Assembly: GCA_965205975.1 (NCBI GenBank)
Contig: OZ242195.1
Coordinates: 3,616,001 to 3,680,000 of the forward strand
DNA length: 64,000 bases
Reading direction: 5' to 3'
Source: Candidatus Latescibacterota bacterium
GTDB lineage: Bacteria > Latescibacterota > UBA2968
Shown piece after piece: positions 43,420 to 50,347 of this stretch. Each line of letters opens with the position of its first letter. Position 1 is the stretch's first letter. The position numbers and the translations under genes were made by a program. The notes beneath the pieces were generated by a model. The model was given only the letters and a program-made list of their open reading frames with translations, made no database searches and was not told the DNA's origin.

Positions 43420-44814
43420 TTATAAACGGTTCCACCTTGCATCCCACCCACGACCTGTGGACACCGCCAGCCCAAGCATCTTCAAAATAGCTAAATCTTC
43501 CCGCACCTGCCTTTGGCTGGCCTGCAACTTCATCTGGGCATATATCTCGCGCAATGCCAGACCTTGACCAGCATGATCCAGCATGACAAGAATCGCTTGT
43601 TGTCGCTCGGTCAAGTCTCGCCCTACGCGCTGAGGCGGCACGTATTGGCTGGGGCGAAAGCGCACCGTCACGCAACTGGACACATCCTCAATCTCGGGTT
43701 TTGGCAGACCGGCAGATGTTGTCAACTCTGCCATCTTGAGCGTGCCGCGTCCCCATTGCTCAATGATACCACGTCGGTAGAATACACCAGCGATCAAGGG
43801 ATTCCAGGGTAGCGACTCGTGCGTCTCAAACAATTTCTCCGCAGTCAACCCAAAATGCAGCGAACCAGACGAAGTCACCTCAAGACGGTCATCGTATATC
43901 GCCACGGCCACTGAGCCACCGCCGATTGAGTAATCCCGATGGCACAGTGCGTTCGCCAATGCCTCGCGCAACGCGACCGGTGGATAGAGCGGCTCATCCA
44001 CCCTCTCAAAGATATTTGGAATGATACGCCCCGCTATGGGCAAGTTTTCGATCATAAAACGCTCTGCTCTTGTAAGCAAGGTGAAAGCATTCCCGCGAAA
44101 CTGTCGATTGTCGAGAAAATCCGTACGATCAACGCCGCGAAAACGGGCAACTCGGAGCAGACACTGCGGCATCTCAGCCTCAATCCGCTCAGTAGTCCCA
44201 AACAGCACAACCGCGGCACGCAATAATACGCCGCCTTTGATTAACCCAAGACCCCGCAACAACGCCTCTGGATCGCGTGTCCCCGGATCCTCGGCGCGTC
44301 CTCGGCGGATTGCTTCATCAACTGTGCGATGGATCTCAGATATGTCGAGATCATCAACTGACCAGTCGGTGGCAGGTTGATTCTCCCAACGTTGTTCGCT
44401 GTGCATCCGTTCGAACAACATTTGATTGTATTCATCACGCGACATACTCAAATTGGTATTCCCAACCCGGCGATAGGCGATGCCTCTGTAGCTGTAAGGC
44501 TTCATCTGACCTTGACTAACGCTCACCACAATCACCTCCCGACCTTCCCCCCCAGGAACCCGCTCAATTGCGGGAAAAGCCGGTGGATCAAGCTGCTGGA
44601 TCTCCTCACTCACATCCTCAACCGTGCGATCACTCACCTGCTGGCCGGTCACTTTTCCTCCCGGCGTAACACCAAACAGGACATTTCCTCCCCGATGATT
44701 GAGCATGGCACAAACAGTTTGAGTAGCCTCACGGCGTCTTCCAGTCGTCTGCTTGAACTCCAGCGTCTCGGACTCGCCAGTTGCAATTAGAGATGTGATG
44801 TACTCAAGCGTCAT
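43420..44814 (-). CDS. Schlafen/AlbA_2 + HATPase_c_4 + HTH protein
   Basis: GESETLEFK...VCAMLN..GG....GV, ALREALANALCHRDY, EQWGRG, C-terminal wHTH. Confidence 0.87.
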   Translation of the reverse strand: MTLEYITSLIATGESETLEFKQTTGRRREATQTVCAMLNHRGGNVLFGVTPGGKVTGQQVSDRTVEDVSEEIQQLDPPAFPAIERVPGGEGREVIVVSVSQGQMKPYSYRGIAYRRVGNTNLSMSRDEYNQMLFERMHSEQRWENQPATDWSVDDLDISEIHRTVDEAIRRGRAEDPGTRDPEALLRGLGLIKGGVLLRAAVVLFGTTERIEAEMPQCLLRVARFRGVDRTDFLDNRQFRGNAFTLLTRAERFMIENLPIAGRIIPNIFERVDEPLYPPVALREALANALCHRDYSIGGGSVAVAIYDDRLEVTSSGSLHFGLTAEKLFETHESLPWNPLIAGVFYRRGIIEQWGRGTLKMAELTTSAGLPKPEIEDVSSCVTVRFRPSQYVPPQRVGRDLTERQQAILVMLDHAGQGLALREIYAQMKLQASQRQVREDLAILKMLGLAVSTGRGWDARWNRL

Positions 44815-44881: not shown

Positions 44882-46381
44882 TCAAATCAAATCGCGCGCA
44901 TCGACAATAGCTTTCAGCTTTGCCTCCGCCACACTTGCCGAAGCCACGGGATTATCGGCGAACGTGGCAAAACCGCAATCCGGTGTCAGCAAAACGCGCG
45001 CTTCTCCAAACAGATTGATCGCCTCTGAAATTCGCCGCCGAATATCTTCCACCAACTCCACCGAATCCAGCTTCTGATTCACCACACCAACCCCTACGCG
45101 CTTATCGTCCGGAACCGCTTTCAACACACCCACATCACCAGCCCGCTCGGTACAAAGCTCCAGAAACAGCGACCCCACATCCACCCGCTTCAGCACATCC
45201 ATCAGCGCACCATACCCCCCGGAAAGCGCCGCGGACTCATCCCGCGTCCAATTGCCCCGGCACATATGCAACCCCAGCCGCTCCCCCGGCAAACCCCGCA
45301 CAACCTCATTCAAAAGGCCGACCGCAAAATCGAGCTCCACCGACGCCTCTAACTTCTCGCTCAAAGCCCCACACATAAAACTGCGATTCCCGGTCGCACC
45401 CCCAAAAACCACCTCTGTCAAAACCGGCTCATCGAACTGCACCAGCGCAACACCCGCCGCCAGCAAAAAATGCACCTCCTCCCGCAAAACCCGCACCACA
45501 TCCCGCGCCAATTCATCCCGCGACTCGTACGGACGCTCCCTGAGACAATCCAGCCACATCGTACGCGTCAGCAAATAAGGCCCGGGCAGCGCCACCTTTA
45601 TCGGCTTATCCGAACAAGAACTCGCAAACTCAAACTCGTGAACCGCCAGCGGGCGACTCCGCCCCAACTTCCCGTACACCACCGGATGCCGCACCTCAGC
45701 CGCCGGAACATCCAGCGCGCGCAGCTCCCGCTCAAACTTCTCCGAATCATCCACCATCGCCGTCAAATCGCTCAGCGGAATAAGCTGGCAATTATCCAGC
45801 AACCCACCCACAAAACTCGCATAACTATCCCGACGCTGCTCCCCATCCGTCAGCACATCAACCCCCGCGCGAGACTGCGCCCCAATACAAAGCCGCACCG
45901 CATCATCCGCCGTCGCCTGAAACTCTGCCTCATCCAACCTGCCCTCGAGCCGATCATGCACCGCCTGCAGCATCCAGCGAGGACGCGGCCAACTCCCAAT
46001 CCCCATAACAGACAACGGCGCAATCCCCGGCGCGGGCGCAGGACCCGGCAGCGACTCGGGAATCGTCACCGCCACCCGAAGTTGCTCCCCAACAGAAGCC
46101 ACAGCCCACCCGCGATCCTCAAACGGCCCCTTGCAAACGAGATAACTGCGCTGCCGCCCCACCTTTGTCCACGACACCAACTCATTGCTCGTCAACCGAC
46201 ACCATGCGGGCAACTCGACCTCAACCGTCGCATCCGTCGATAAAATCTCCAGCAACCCACCGCGCGCCAGCGGGTCAATATGCCGGCGAATCAGCAATAA
46301 CAAACCGCCGCCGCAATCCAAATCTCCACCGTCAAAACTGACATCGGACGCATATTTGTGTCGTTCTATCGGCTCCAACAC
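44882..46381 (-). CDS. TusA-domain / cobalamin-independent methionine synthase (MetE C-terminal half) fusion
   Basis: N-terminal DGGDLDCG...LPAWCR TusA-like domain, Pro-rich linker, then IGSWPRP, TDGEQRR, QFDEP, LHMCRGN, LFLE, TPDCGF. Confidence 0.85.
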   Translation of the reverse strand: MLEPIERHKYASDVSFDGGDLDCGGGLLLLIRRHIDPLARGGLLEILSTDATVEVELPAWCRLTSNELVSWTKVGRQRSYLVCKGPFEDRGWAVASVGEQLRVAVTIPESLPGPAPAPGIAPLSVMGIGSWPRPRWMLQAVHDRLEGRLDEAEFQATADDAVRLCIGAQSRAGVDVLTDGEQRRDSYASFVGGLLDNCQLIPLSDLTAMVDDSEKFERELRALDVPAAEVRHPVVYGKLGRSRPLAVHEFEFASSCSDKPIKVALPGPYLLTRTMWLDCLRERPYESRDELARDVVRVLREEVHFLLAAGVALVQFDEPVLTEVVFGGATGNRSFMCGALSEKLEASVELDFAVGLLNEVVRGLPGERLGLHMCRGNWTRDESAALSGGYGALMDVLKRVDVGSLFLELCTERAGDVGVLKAVPDDKRVGVGVVNQKLDSVELVEDIRRRISEAINLFGEARVLLTPDCGFATFADNPVASASVAEAKLKAIVDARDLI

Positions 46382-46386
46382 ACCTC

Positions 46387-46749
46387 CTAATACGTAATAC
46401 AGGGCGTCCCATCGGAAAGAAACTCCACCAGCGCAGCGCCCCCAACCATAATTGCCCCATCGACCAGATTATTTTCATCCAAACCGCGCTTCTTAAAACA
46501 CGGCGCACACACGTAAATCGTCCCACCACCACCCACAAACAAATCCATAAGATCCTTCAGCGGCAAAAAACCCTCCTCTGCCACATCGTCGGCATAGCCC
46601 TTCTGGGAAAGCCGAACGCCCTCCGTAGTCATAAAAAGGAGCGTCTCCTTCTCCGATCCCAGCGCGGCATTGGCAACTACAAAAGCCACAGTCGCTTTAT
46701 CCGTATCGTCCTTCGCACAAGTCAAACTAACACAGAATTTTCCAGCCAC
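46387..46749 (-). CDS. DsrE family protein
   Basis: AF.VANAA, LF...EGV.L, YVCAPC..KRG, G..M.G. Confidence 0.85.
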   Translation of the reverse strand: MAGKFCVSLTCAKDDTDKATVAFVVANAALGSEKETLLFMTTEGVRLSQKGYADDVAEEGFLPLKDLMDLFVGGGGTIYVCAPCFKKRGLDENNLVDGAIMVGGAALVEFLSDGTPCITY

Positions 46750-46764
46750 TTATTTCTCCTTATA

Positions 46765-47010
46765 TTATTTTAGTTTCTCTTCTATCCAGTAAAACGGGTG
46801 ATCCGCACGAACCATCCGCCGCCCAGTCATGCGGCACCAGGCGGGCAAATCAACAGGCGCGCCCGGATCATAAGCCGTAAGCTTCAAAACCTCGCCCTCC
46901 TCGAGCTTTTGCATCCGCATTCGAAGCAAAATAATAACCTCGCCGCACCCCATGTGTCCCGCATCCCATTCATCGGCTGCGACAATATCTCGTTCATCCG
47001 ACATCTTCAC
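46765..47010 (-). CDS. TusA family sulfur carrier
   Basis: DAGHMGCGE, DPGA..DLPAWCRMTG. Confidence 0.88.
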   Translation of the reverse strand: MKMSDERDIVAADEWDAGHMGCGEVIILLRMRMQKLEEGEVLKLTAYDPGAPVDLPAWCRMTGRRMVRADHPFYWIEEKLK

Positions 47011-48383
47011 TCCTGCGGCAATTCCTCGGCACTAATATCGATCTCCTCGATCAACCGCGCCAGATCTGCTTCTACCTCTGCCTGCACATCGGCATACGCC
47101 GGATCGCCGTACACACTCGTCATCTCCCAGGGATCCTTTTCCAAATCGAACAAATCGCGCTCGCCCGTTCGATGTACCGCGAGCGTATAATTTTGCGTAC
47201 GCACGCCATAGTGCTTCGTCGGCCCATCCCAATACGCATAAAAAGCCGACTGCCGCCAATCCTCTATCGTCTCCCCCTCACACAGCGCGCGAAAACTTCT
47301 GCCCTGCACCTGTGCATCGGGTTGCAACCCGGCAAAATCGAGATACGTCGCGCCAAAATCTACATTCACCACAATATCCTCATTCACCGAACCCGGCGCA
47401 ATCGCCCCTGGATACCGCATCACATAAGGCATGAGAAGCGACTCCTCCAGAATCAAACGCTTATCAAAATACGAATGCTCGCCCAAAAACATACCCTGAT
47501 CAGAAGTATATACCACAATCGTATTCTCCGTCAACCCCTCCTCATCCAGATAATCCAGCAACCGCCCCACACCCTCATCAATCGCCGTAATACACCGCAA
47601 ATAATCCTTTACATACTTCTGATAAGCCGCATGAATCTTCTCCGTCGTATTCATCCCCGTCGTATCCAACCGCCCCGTAGGCCACGCTCTTCCCCGGACG
47701 CCCTCATCCATCCGCTCGGCCTGCGAGAGCATCGTGCGGTGATGATTCTCCAACGCGCTGGACACCTTGTCAAACGGCTTATACAAATTCGACGGCTCGG
47801 GCAAATCCCCATCCGCAAACAAATCCGCATGACGAGGCGCGTACTCCCACAAACCATGGGGCGCTTTGTGGTGACACAGCATCAAAAAGGGCTTATCCGG
47901 ATCGCGAGCCTTCAACCAGTTGAGCGACAAATCCGTAATAATATCCGTCGCGTACCCCTCGTACTGCGTCGGCTCGCCATTGCGCGTAAACGACGGATCA
48001 AAATAAGCCCCCTGTCCCGGCAACACCTCCCAATAATCAAACCCATCCGGCTCAGACCCCAAATGCCACTTACCCGCAATACCCGTTTGATATCCAGAAG
48101 CCTGCAACTGCCGCACAAAATTGGGGTGATCGTCACTCAGCGGTTGATTCAACCGCAACACCCCATTTTTATGGCTATATTGCCCCGTAATAATACTCGC
48201 CCTGCTCGGCGAACACAGCGCATTATTGCAAATACAATTGTCAAACCGCATCCCCTCACGAGCGATGCGGTCAATATTCGGTGTATCCACCACCTCATTC
48301 AGCCATCCGTTATAACAACTGATGGCATTCACGGTATGATCATCAGACATAATGTAGAGAATATTGGGACGTGGATCAGACAT
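47007..48383 (-). CDS. Sulfatase
   Basis: Own GGAGG RBS and ATG at 48383; PNILYIMSDDH, CSPSRASIITG, GKWHL, SDQG. Confidence 0.9.
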   Translation of the reverse strand: MSDPRPNILYIMSDDHTVNAISCYNGWLNEVVDTPNIDRIAREGMRFDNCICNNALCSPSRASIITGQYSHKNGVLRLNQPLSDDHPNFVRQLQASGYQTGIAGKWHLGSEPDGFDYWEVLPGQGAYFDPSFTRNGEPTQYEGYATDIITDLSLNWLKARDPDKPFLMLCHHKAPHGLWEYAPRHADLFADGDLPEPSNLYKPFDKVSSALENHHRTMLSQAERMDEGVRGRAWPTGRLDTTGMNTTEKIHAAYQKYVKDYLRCITAIDEGVGRLLDYLDEEGLTENTIVVYTSDQGMFLGEHSYFDKRLILEESLLMPYVMRYPGAIAPGSVNEDIVVNVDFGATYLDFAGLQPDAQVQGRSFRALCEGETIEDWRQSAFYAYWDGPTKHYGVRTQNYTLAVHRTGERDLFDLEKDPWEMTSVYGDPAYADVQAEVEADLARLIEEIDISAEELPQE

Positions 48384-48758
48384 TAAAATTCCTCCAGTGG
48401 TTAAGTGTAGCACTCCCGATTCATGGCGTATGATTTCCTCAATTTGTAAGACTACGCCGGGCAATTCGACAATAACAATGTTCCACACAATATCAAAATT
48501 AACACCAAAATAATGATGAATGAGTCTGTCCCTGACGCCCGCCATACTTTTCCAAGGGACATTTGGATATTTGGTACGAAGTTCTGTGGATAGATTTTTA
48601 GTCGCTTCTCCAATAATTTCCAGATTGCGTATCACGGCATCCTGCGTCCTCGTATCCGACAAAAACGTTTCATAAGTCATTCCAGCCGTATAGACTTTTA
48701 TCCGCCGTGCGGCTTCTCGAATATCACTCAGAAAGTCTATATTTGTTCGATTAGACAT
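48384..48758 (-). CDS. hepT: HepT/DUF86 HEPN RNase toxin, reading in frame into the downstream sulfatase
   Basis: DAVIRNLEIIGEA, PW..M.G.RDRLIHHYF; no stop codon before the sulfatase ATG. Confidence 0.85.
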
Positions 48759-49059
48759 ACACGATACTTTCTTTGATATTCTGGGCAACATGCGGAATTC
48801 GAATCCCTTGAATACCAGCATCGGTCAGGACATCTACCCGTTTGCCCAGGATAGCCTCAAGATATTCGCTAAACTCAATGAACCGAAGACCTATTGGATG
48901 TTCAAATTCCACAACAAGGTCAATGTCACTTGATTGGGTGGGCGTACCTTTCGCATAAGACCCAAACAAACCTATTCTCTTAACCCCGTACTCAGACGCC
49001 AGATAAGGGCGGTTTTCCGAGAGAATATTTGCGATTTTTTCTTTTGTCAACATTGCCAT
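48751..49059 (-). CDS. mntA: MntA minimal nucleotidyltransferase antitoxin
   Basis: GLFGSYAKG.....SDIDLVV, LG.RVD; overlaps the hepT start. Confidence 0.88.
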   Translation of the reverse strand: MAMLTKEKIANILSENRPYLASEYGVKRIGLFGSYAKGTPTQSSDIDLVVEFEHPIGLRFIEFSEYLEAILGKRVDVLTDAGIQGIRIPHVAQNIKESIVYV

Positions 49060-49087
49060 TTTCTCCCTCAAGTGAATTCTCTTTCTT

Positions 49088-50347
49088 CTACTCCGGAACA
49101 TAATCATCAATAAATTCCGGCATCATATCCAACACCTTTTGCAAGCGTTCACGCGCCGCTTCAGAATCGGCATCGCCCTGCCCCAAAACAATATCGTACT
49201 CTTCCAGCCGATCCGCAGGCACATCGTAAAACCGCCCATCGTGATAAATTTTAAACCGATGTTCCCGCGCAAACTGCCCCGCGTGATCTTGACCAAAACC
49301 AAAACGCGGGTTGTAATGACAAAAAATCCAATCCCTCGGATCGCCCCGTTCGCCCCGCAACTGGGGCAAAAAACTCCGCCCATCACACGGCATCCCCTCT
49401 GGAATAGGCGCATCTGCCAAATCCATCAGCGTCGGCAAAAAATCGCTAAAATCCACCAGATCATCTAACACCACGCCCTCTGGCGCCACACCCTTCCAAA
49501 AAGCAATAAAAGGCACATGTGTCCCCGCATCCGGCATCGTGCCCTTACCGCCCACAATCTCGACACCACCCTCAAGCTGGGACGTAATCGTGCGATGCGT
49601 ACCATTATCACTCGTAAACATCACCAGCGTATTCTCGAGCAAATCCAGCGCCTCGAGCTTCTCCACAATCCGCCCCACCAGCTTATCCGCATACGCCACC
49701 ATATCGGCAAAATAGCGCGTATCCTGCTCACCTCTCCGACCTCTATCCCGCCACTCCGGGCTATCGGGCGTGGGAACAAAAGGCGCGTGAACCAGAATCA
49801 TCGGATAATAAGCAAAAAAAGGCACATCCCGATGTCGCTCAATAAAATCCAGCAAATAATCACAACAAATATCGGGACCATACCGATCTTCGATATAATC
49901 GTCTGGCAACCATTCCCCATTACATTCAATTTGCGGATTTGCATATCGCCCCTTTGCAACGCGTGCAGGATCTTCTGGAAGCGGCGTCATATTCCACAAA
50001 CAATGCTCGTCAAACCCAAAATGCGCCGGCATCTTATTATCCTTACTCAACTGCCACTTACCCGCAACACACGTAGCATACCCCGCATCCTTTAACAAAT
50101 TGCCAAACGTCTTTTCTTTGGGATTCAAATAGGCGAACCTGTCGTAATTCCGAAAATTGTACTGCCCCGTCATAATCTCCACGCGAGAAGGCGTACACAG
50201 CGGCGTCGAATAACAATGGGAAAAGAGAATCCCCCGCGATGCCAGATCGTCCAATACTGGCGTCTCATAAGTCGTACTCCCGTAACAACTCAAACACTCA
50301 AACCCCATATCATCTGCCATAATCAACACAACATTTGGTCTCGCCAT
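49088..50347 (-). CDS. Sulfatase (arylsulfatase-like)
   Basis: PNVVLIMADD, CTPSRVEIMTG, GKWQL, SDNG. Confidence 0.92.
   Translation of the reverse strand: MARPNVVLIMADDMGFECLSCYGSTTYETPVLDDLASRGILFSHCYSTPLCTPSRVEIMTGQYNFRNYDRFAYLNPKEKTFGNLLKDAGYATCVAGKWQLSKDNKMPAHFGFDEHCLWNMTPLPEDPARVAKGRYANPQIECNGEWLPDDYIEDRYGPDICCDYLLDFIERHRDVPFFAYYPMILVHAPFVPTPDSPEWRDRGRRGEQDTRYFADMVAYADKLVGRIVEKLEALDLLENTLVMFTSDNGTHRTITSQLEGGVEIVGGKGTMPDAGTHVPFIAFWKGVAPEGVVLDDLVDFSDFLPTLMDLADAPIPEGMPCDGRSFLPQLRGERGDPRDWIFCHYNPRFGFGQDHAGQFAREHRFKIYHDGRFYDVPADRLEEYDIVLGQGDADSEAARERLQKVLDMMPEFIDDYVPE

Follow-up and report, generated by a model that had tools for sequence, protein, structure and literature searches.

Gene content of the module

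The window analysed here is a stretch of 64,000 nucleotides from a Candidatus Latescibacterota bacterium (contig OZ242195.1). It contains genes for a stand-alone TusA-family carrier, a DsrE-family protein, and a protein in which a second TusA-type domain is fused to a single MetE-type catalytic barrel (a core MetE). We found that this module is real, conserved, widespread, and apparently uncharacterised, that an unfused sister clade of the enzyme is predicted to use selenocysteine (Sec) at the position of an invariant cysteine of the barrel, and that the operon adjoins genes of selenium metabolism in several lineages. A selenium-handling role of some kind is, in our view, probable. The original prediction had described three packed, co-oriented genes; they are indeed three minus-strand open reading frames (ORFs), and every motif it quoted is present (GHMGCGE, CAPC, GDLDCGG, LPAWCR, and the zinc ligands). 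The features of the module, in window coordinates, are the following.

46765..47010, minus strand: stand-alone TusA-family carrier with xCG in place of CPxP, 81 aa
46387..46749, minus strand: DsrE-family protein with CxxC (CAPC), 120 aa; Pfam PF02635, E 1e-12
44882..46381, minus strand: TusA::core-MetE fusion, 499 aa as called; Meth_synt_2, E 1e-29
46118..46360, minus strand: fused TusA domain, residues ~8-88; Pfam TusA E 3e-4, below the cut-off, with the same Cys pattern and fold
46313-46315, minus strand: codon of Cys23 in the fused TusA domain, invariant
46025..46114, minus strand: Pro-rich linker, partly of low confidence (predicted local distance difference test score, pLDDT, <50 at residues 92-100)
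44885..46024, minus strand: single (beta/alpha)8 MetE catalytic barrel
45545..45547, minus strand: codon of Cys279, conserved without exception in the fused (Cys) clade, missing in the Sec clade
45371..45373, minus strand: codon of Cys337 (RxFMC), invariant; TGA plus a hairpin resembling a selenocysteine insertion sequence (SECIS) in the sister clade

The stand-alone TusA matches Pfam PF01206 above the cut-off (E 4e-8). Both TusA domains carry CG instead of CPxP (GCG and DCG), as first described. The second cysteine that had been singled out is an ordinary feature: both cysteines of the stand-alone protein align with the cysteine pair of E. coli TusA (PGFC against PAWC), and only 66 of 78 sequences retain the second one in the fused domain. 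The first cysteine of the stand-alone TusA is present in all 72 aligned homologues and the CxxC of DsrE in all 74.

The catalytic barrel and its conserved residues

The AlphaFold model of the fusion (mean pLDDT 83) consists of a TusA-type domain, an extended linker, and a barrel. The latter resembles MetE and MesD structures in Foldseek comparisons (E 1e-21), and the top PDB match by sequence (E 2e-20) and by fold is 3RPD, the structure of MesD. At 21% identity over the fold alignment with 3RPD, the enzyme lacks the close similarity expected of MesD itself. All NCBIfam matches are below their cut-offs, the best being PRK04326, a short methionine synthase family (152 bits against 406). A full-length MetE is ruled out by the lone Meth_synt_2 domain and by a TIGR01371 score of 74 bits against a cut-off of 930. 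A split MetE was also rejected, as no separate Meth_synt_1 protein was found in the host or in three more of the five carrier genomes searched, the single match being a full MetE.

The zinc ligands of the barrel (H372, C374, E408, and C469) are invariant in 64 aligned sequences. The amino-acid triad S130/E181/D317 is likewise intact and invariant, and aligns with the motifs of 3RPD. In the portions of Price et al. available to us (PMC7857596), the residues given for MetE and MesD correspond to both sets. Since the triad is intact, a homocysteine-like amino acid probably still binds at the zinc, and the earlier proposal that a carrier-bound persulfide replaces homocysteine as the substrate finds no support. 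The pterin side retains W276 and E323, which in an alignment with MetE are the equivalents of the folate-contacting Trp539 and Glu583.

The barrel also contains two invariant cysteines that had been overlooked, C279 and C337. Along with C23 of the fused TusA domain, they are kept in 76-77 of 78 fusions, the rest being gaps (for C337, 77 of the 78 with one gap). An alignment to T. maritima MetE places C279 three residues past the equivalent of the pterin-stacking Trp539. Passages of a MetE study (PMC539065) locate the folate determinants in the beta2-beta4 loops of the catalytic barrel, and by alignment C279 and C337 map to two of these folate-site loops. Judging from the topology of the fold, C337 would lie on an extended beta4-alpha4 loop, and the loops of C279 and C337 would line the methyl-donor site; confidence in the AlphaFold model is low at the C337 loop (block means of 65 and 56). 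Cys279 would be a candidate resolving cysteine. A predicted complex of the fused TusA domain, the barrel, and zinc scored 0.00 and was counted neither way.

Across loci, the partners of the barrel are thiol carriers or reductases: TusA, DsrE, OsmC, rhodanese, and TrxB. The presence of a Cys or Sec on a donor-side loop, with partners exclusively of these kinds, suggests that a chalcogen on Cys337 takes the donor's place. A carrier-linked chalcogen is more likely to act on the methyl-donor side, through Cys337 or Sec. The same intact amino-acid site beside a redox-type Cys/Sec, and the same set of partners, would also suit an enzyme without any methyl transfer, in which zinc-bound homocysteine, selenohomocysteine, or activated homoserine swaps its chalcogen with Cys337/Sec, so that the module would insert sulfur or selenium into a homocysteine-type amino acid or strip selenium from it. 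A cystathionine-beta-synthase-like gene, recognised by eye near the module in three Burkholderiales regions (L189, L190, and L194), fits this exchange. However, cleavage of C-S or C-Se bonds at an unactivated gamma carbon normally needs pyridoxal phosphate, and no homoserine-activating gene recurs among the module's neighbours, which makes the exchange rather improbable.

Distribution of the module

We searched GTDB contigs for relatives with a sequence pattern. Among 599 matches, 559 encoded a relative; about 1100 such stretches are estimated, and 80 fused loci were kept. The 120 best protein matches show 75-97% identity across 96-100% of the length. The original prediction had proposed conservation of the neighbourhood across genomes as a check, and all three genes occur together in 72 of the 80 fused loci, from several phyla; seven of the other eight are truncated where the contig stops, at the module or a little way upstream of it. 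This arrangement is thus not due to chance. The loci are labelled Latescibacterota, Dehalococcoidia, Acidobacteriota, Planctomycetota, Dormiibacterota, and Proteobacteria. Four loci labelled Bifidobacterium, Bordetella parapertussis, or Klebsiella (L045, L049, L053, and L056) group in the tree described below with freshwater Betaproteobacteria and are probably mislabelled bins. The carriers include Paracoccus, Duganella, and Paraburkholderia, which are aerobes.

The family is patchy. Samples of 251 Acidobacteriota, 301 Burkholderiales, 401 Alphaproteobacteria, and 101 genomes from the host's phylum contained 4, 10, 3, and 10 carriers, respectively, the genome at the centre of each sample included. 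Eight of 19 other genomes of the host genus have it. In a quick maximum likelihood tree, the window's enzyme branches within Dehalococcoidia sequences together with the three relatives nearest to it, which are labelled Latescibacterota; this placement hints at, without proving, acquisition of the module by the host lineage.

Besides the fusion, the host has a MetH-like protein of 1223 aa, which carries a DxHxxG motif, and a further Meth_synt_2 protein distinct from the fusion. Given this MetH and the presence of the module in only part of the genus, the fusion is unlikely to be a housekeeping methionine synthase and is better seen as accessory. One could still propose a fifth kind of core methionine synthase, using methyl-pterin or another cellular donor. 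In such an enzyme, Cys337/Sec and the carriers would either maintain the zinc thiolates in reduced form or pass the methyl group along, and the linkage to sel genes would be no more than a trace of an ancestral need for Sec. The full set of zinc and homocysteine residues, the retained W276/E323, and the best NCBIfam match, to a short methionine synthase family, all speak for this proposal, and sharing a genome with MetH is no obstacle to it, as MesD does so in 75% of cases according to part of PMC7857596. We consider it improbable, since Cys-form operons, which need no Sec, still adjoin selA, selB, and selD (see below), the Meth_synt_1 half is absent from four of the five carrier genomes (the fifth having a full MetE), and the distribution is patchy within one genus.

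A sister clade with a predicted selenocysteine codon

An unfused sister clade has ~42% identity to the fused clade and the gene order tusA-dsrE-(tusA/OsmC)-coreMetE. Here, the GGDLDCGxG TusA domain of the fusion is attached to OsmC. We examined 60 loci of this clade, 53 of which cover the C337 motif. The position of C337 is occupied by an in-frame TGA in 45 of the 53 and by Cys in the remaining 8. In all 42 distinct TGA sequences with full flanks, a SECIS-like hairpin with a perfect 5-bp stem lies 16 nt downstream of the TGA. The third codon positions within the stem are fixed in 41-42 of these 42 sequences, whereas adjacent synonymous sites vary freely. The hairpin is kept in none of the eight Cys forms. 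There are no compensatory pair changes among the 42 TGA sequences, so the case for the structure comes from constraint, not from covariation. The one TGA genome checked, G091, contains selB. The sister-clade enzyme is thus a predicted selenoprotein, whose counterpart in the window carries Cys. Where Sec replaces Cys, the residue is usually a catalytic thiol. Two representatives in protein collections end exactly at the TGA codon, and 46 of the 150 best representatives there have the FMC motif.

Three Sec-clade loci (L088:4472, L091:2179, and L098:4474) have a frame of 9-10 codons followed by a TGA and a hairpin ahead of tusA, possibly a selenium-sensing leader. The window has no such upstream frame.

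Other core-MetE loci provide two further observations. In L214 (G659:C1:583243-584274), from a different core-MetE subfamily, an in-frame TGA stands at the zinc-ligand Cys of HxC (H-L-TGA-R-G-N), and the genome has a TGA-containing selD; Sec may possibly serve as a zinc ligand in this enzyme, which is a single sequence whose hairpin is not convincing. A Cys-form core MetE lies beside an Rv1680-like binding protein in eight loci (L120, L121, L124, L125, L132, L135, L137, and L216), with an Rv1679-like acyl-CoA dehydrogenase and OsmC where the contig reaches, and without TusA/DsrE. This is a second conserved system built on this barrel.

Selenium genes next to the module

The linkage to selenium genes stands out best in a selenium island of Paracoccus. 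In P. ferrooxidans pFER4, the operon reads tusA-dsrE-two unknown genes-fusion-selA-trxB. Upstream and divergent lie selB, a gene of the UGSC family that is interrupted by an in-frame TGA, and a gene for a SufS-family desulfurase. This arrangement recurs in P. versutus pBEN. More broadly, selB is present in 14 of the 80 fused loci and selD in 2, one of them together with selA, selB, and tRNA-Sec. In three of eight wider Burkholderiales regions, selD lies within 7 kb of the module. Cys-form operons, which need no Sec, are among those adjoining selA, selB, or selD; selB or selAB also adjoin the module in three Sec-clade loci. The passing mention of a selenol in the original prediction proved to be its most useful part.

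The host genome has selD, selA, and selB. Of the 50 carrier genomes tested, which cover 50 of the 80 fused loci, 47 have selD and the remaining 3 have selB. In one near-complete genome of the host's genus, the module and selB are present, and selD gave no match. A Fisher test of 47/50 against 92/121 background genomes gives a nominal p of 0.005, which is overstated because the genomes are related and the sets unmatched. We dropped co-occurrence with selenium genes as a decisive test, the backgrounds being too high.

Some neighbourhoods recall selenoneine synthesis, as recognised by eye. At L194:15031-18394, selD stands beside senB/senA-like genes 7 kb from the module, and in two genomes of the host's family (L213 and L215) selD and an EgtB/SenA-like gene are found at a distance of 6-7 kb from a core MetE of another family.

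Transport-type genes within the operon

The module took in transport-type genes twice. In 10 of the 80 fused loci and in one alphaproteobacterial locus (L225), an ATP-binding cassette (ABC) importer lies inside or directly before the operon. Its binding protein is nearest to the hypophosphite-binding HtxB (E 2e-78, versus 1e-20 for PtxB/PhnD). The HtxB pocket (W52, N128, F158, R178, and D206) is only partly preserved: W52, R178, and D206 are kept, but all 10 sequences have N128S and F158H, i.e., Ser and His at the site of the third oxygen. Such a His/Ser pocket matches the uncharacterised PtxB/HtxB 'hybrid' class described in parts of the work of Bisson et al. (PMC5700983, PMC6629693). The ligand would be a pyramidal three-oxygen anion: phosphite, sulfite, or selenite. 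The gene is absent from the host.

The likeness to HtxB and the retained pocket residues raise the option that imported phosphite or hypophosphite is oxidised through a P-S or P-Se intermediate on Cys337/Sec, with the carriers removing the electrons. We hold this to be very improbable. The importer occurs in a small part of the fused loci and not in the host, and among the close orthologues of the binding protein in a 301-genome sample, 5 of 7 come from genomes that lack the module. Queries from the operon of L170 revealed no ptxD or htxA orthologue at any module locus, and the conserved amino-acid site would go unexplained. L170 (G485), from a Burkholderiales-order genome, has by gene order and similarity an htxABCD-ptxDE-like hypophosphite operon. 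A role in arsenic metabolism was considered because AioX is PhnD-like and was set aside, as no ars gene recurs beside the module.

In Paracoccus (L222:12511-14595) and in an Oxalobacteraceae bin (L077:3829-5892), the place of the importer between dsrE and the fusion is taken by the two unknown genes, which encode a small hydrophobic CxxC protein and a protein of 505-522 aa. Pfam and NCBIfam searches with the two Paracoccus proteins gave no match, and the Atlas search with the small one gave unnamed clusters only. A second, divergent DsrE-like gene lies near importer-type betaproteobacterial operons (L064, L067, L068, L070, L071, L074, and L077).

An oxyanion importer within the operon would suit an enzyme that works in the opposite direction to salvage, in line with the original prediction, methylating a carrier-bound persulfide or perselenide to methanethiol, methylselenol, or selenomethionine for detoxification or storage. 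The carriers would be loaded from imported selenite or by a SufS-type lyase, and methionine or a methyl-pterin would be the donor. The catalytic anatomy would be the same, sufS and trxB flank the Paracoccus module, W276/E323 are retained, and an excerpt of PMC10418091 reports that an Mlp enzyme performs methylcobalamin:selenide methyl transfer in vitro. Yet importers and selA/selB/selD nearby speak for acquisition and against removal, the neighbours include no recurrent exporter, and no methyl-donor partner is encoded with the module. We deem this direction unlikely.

Comparison with known systems

Several systems share parts of this architecture; what follows on published ones draws on excerpts of the cited papers. 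Like the module, the core methionine synthases MesA-MesD (PMC7857596; MesD structure 3RPD) have a single MetE barrel, the zinc ligands, and the S/E/D triad, and rely on partner proteins. The module differs from MesD in sequence (21% identity to 3RPD, scores below all NCBIfam cut-offs) and from all Mes enzymes in the fused TusA and in the extra Cys/Sec of the beta4-alpha4 loop. Its partners are TusA, DsrE, and OsmC, whereas those of the Mes enzymes are MesX or corrinoid proteins. MesA, MesB, and MesC go with methanogen or Wood-Ljungdahl hosts and a corrinoid partner; the module's carriers include the aerobes Paracoccus, Duganella, and Paraburkholderia. MesX (PF08908) was matched in none of five carrier genomes, yet the control genomes gave no match either; none was seen among the recurring neighbours.

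MetE itself (1XDJ, 1T7L) shares with the module the C-terminal barrel, the zinc site, and the equivalents of Trp539 and Glu583. The module lacks the N-terminal barrel, fused or separate, and has only Meth_synt_2. The persulfide relays of tRNA thiolation and sulfur oxidation have the same TusA and DsrE folds with their conserved cysteines. Unlike them, the module has xCG for CPxP and an attached MetE-type enzyme, and dsr, shdr, and mnmA are not among its recurring neighbours.

By analogy, the module most likely works like the methyl-selenide systems Type 1 mlp and SdmABC (PMC10418091, PMC11097638), which also belong to the UroD/MetE superfamily and are accessory, patchy, and sel-linked. Their UroD-fold methyltransferases depend on a corrinoid and have been proposed to recycle methyl-selenides while sending the methyl group toward methionine (PMC10418091). 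Under selenium depletion, Methanococcus maripaludis raises both the sdm operon and an operon of TusA type (PMC11097638). The mlp/Sdm systems require a corrinoid protein and a reductive activase and are described from anaerobes only, whereas the module uses Cys/Sec carriers and occurs in aerobes (Paracoccus, Duganella). We found no corrinoid protein or reductive activase among the recurring neighbours or in the annotated Paracoccus region.

A proposed model of selenium salvage

We favour, at a probability of roughly one in three, a B12-free salvage of selenium from methylated selenium, in which the methyl group goes to homocysteine and the selenium through the carriers to SelD. We infer every chemical step of this mechanism. 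A methyl-selenium species, either methylselenol or methylseleninate or dimethyl diselenide once these have reacted with thiols, would be caught on Cys337/Sec as a mixed selenenyl sulfide. Zinc-activated homocysteine would then take the methyl group to give methionine, leaving a perselenide on Cys337. Finally, the tethered TusA (via Cys23), DsrE (via CxxC), and the free TusA would pass the selenium to selenophosphate synthetase and return the enzyme to its starting state, with thioredoxin reductase or OsmC assisting at some loci. Methanethiol-derived sulfur could be handled by the same chemistry. The clustering with importers and with selA, selB, and selD favours acquisition of selenium over its removal. 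The more specific assignment, a cobalamin- and S-adenosylmethionine-independent methyl-selenide/-sulfide:homocysteine methyltransferase whose donor is a Cys/Sec-bound methyl-perchalcogenide and whose TusA/DsrE relay feeds SelD, is more doubtful than the salvage role as such.

A number of observations weigh against the salvage model. A Sec residue need not imply a selenium substrate, as most selenoenzymes act on other things. Attack of a thiolate on the selenium of a selenenyl sulfide is normally faster than on its methyl carbon. The retained W276/E323 may leave room for a pterin donor. Some relatives of the barrel (L085, L224, and the group linked to acyl-CoA dehydrogenase) occur without TusA/DsrE. 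The sel-linked loci reduce to ~5-6 lineages, the two Dehalococcoidia groups being sisters, and in the host selD lies ~235 kb from the module, with no sel gene near the module in the window. Sec machinery is not required, since a SelB domain was found in 15 of 35 proteobacterial carriers versus 43 of 151 background genomes. The background is high in general, with selD in 92 of 121 Burkholderiales (76%) and selB in 96 of 121 Acidobacteriota, and the carrier genomes are related; these tallies include three genomes flagged as unpublished, G073 and G098 in the Acidobacteriota selB set and G323 in the selD and SelB-domain sets of Burkholderiales and proteobacteria. Finally, HtxB does not bind methylphosphonate (in part of PMC5700983), so selenite or sulfite would fit the small HtxB-like pocket of the importer better than methylated species do. 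The probability left over by the salvage model and its alternatives goes to something unforeseen.

Gene starts and flanking genes

The GTGA overlap originally noted between the start of tusA and the stop of the upstream sulfatase gene exists, but the GTG falls within a Shine-Dalgarno-like AGGAG, so the ATG at 47004, 2 nt past the sulfatase stop, is the likelier start. For the fusion, a TTG at 46378 is likelier than the called start and gives 498 aa, as in several homologues. A scan for promoters and terminators showed nothing clear upstream of tusA. Contigs of RNA libraries from four sponge or coral metagenome runs match parts of the module at 90-99% identity, one of them (1.9 kb) spanning tusA to mid-fusion, although such contigs cannot show transcription.

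The 604-aa 'sulfatase' ORF upstream (window 47007-48821, minus strand) has a HepT-like domain in frame with the sulfatase, whose own start is likely near 48380. As a nucleotidyltransferase gene (48751-49110) lies upstream of this domain, the two look like an inserted MNT-HepT toxin-antitoxin pair. In two runs, the contigs skip 331 nt in the HepT/sulfatase region. Directly downstream of the module lies a gene for an AlbA_2/HATPase_c_4 protein (window 43420-44814, minus strand), which is absent or displaced there in genus mates.

Implications for selenium metabolism

Our literature search, which covered some but not every selenoprotein survey and family list, found no paper on the module. A term search of a 2026 review of prokaryotic selenoproteins (PMC13188914) returned no 'methionine synthase', 'MetE', 'PF01717', or 'homocysteine'. 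One member of the SAO system is DsrE-like, but a MetE-like one was not found under the terms searched in the available part of the preprint. The Paracoccus fusion is labelled an ordinary methionine synthase, and the Sec-clade enzyme is shortened at the TGA in protein collections.

Aerobic recovery of selenium from methylated forms and carriers that hand selenium to SelD are two functions for which the module is a compact candidate. Whatever the exact chemistry, the combination of tethered carriers with a catalytic Cys/Sec is a so far unexplored way of using the MetE fold, and culturable strains that bear the module are available (Paracoccus versutus DSM 17099, Duganella, and Paraburkholderia). 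According to part of a 2024 paper (PMC11097638), no dedicated selenium transporter is known; if the model is true, the HtxB-like ABC system could be a dedicated importer of selenium oxyanions. The MetE fold would then also have gained a methyl donor of a new class, and the module would represent a family of selenoenzymes absent from the catalogues searched and an aerobic counterpart to the corrinoid-dependent recycling of methyl-selenides.

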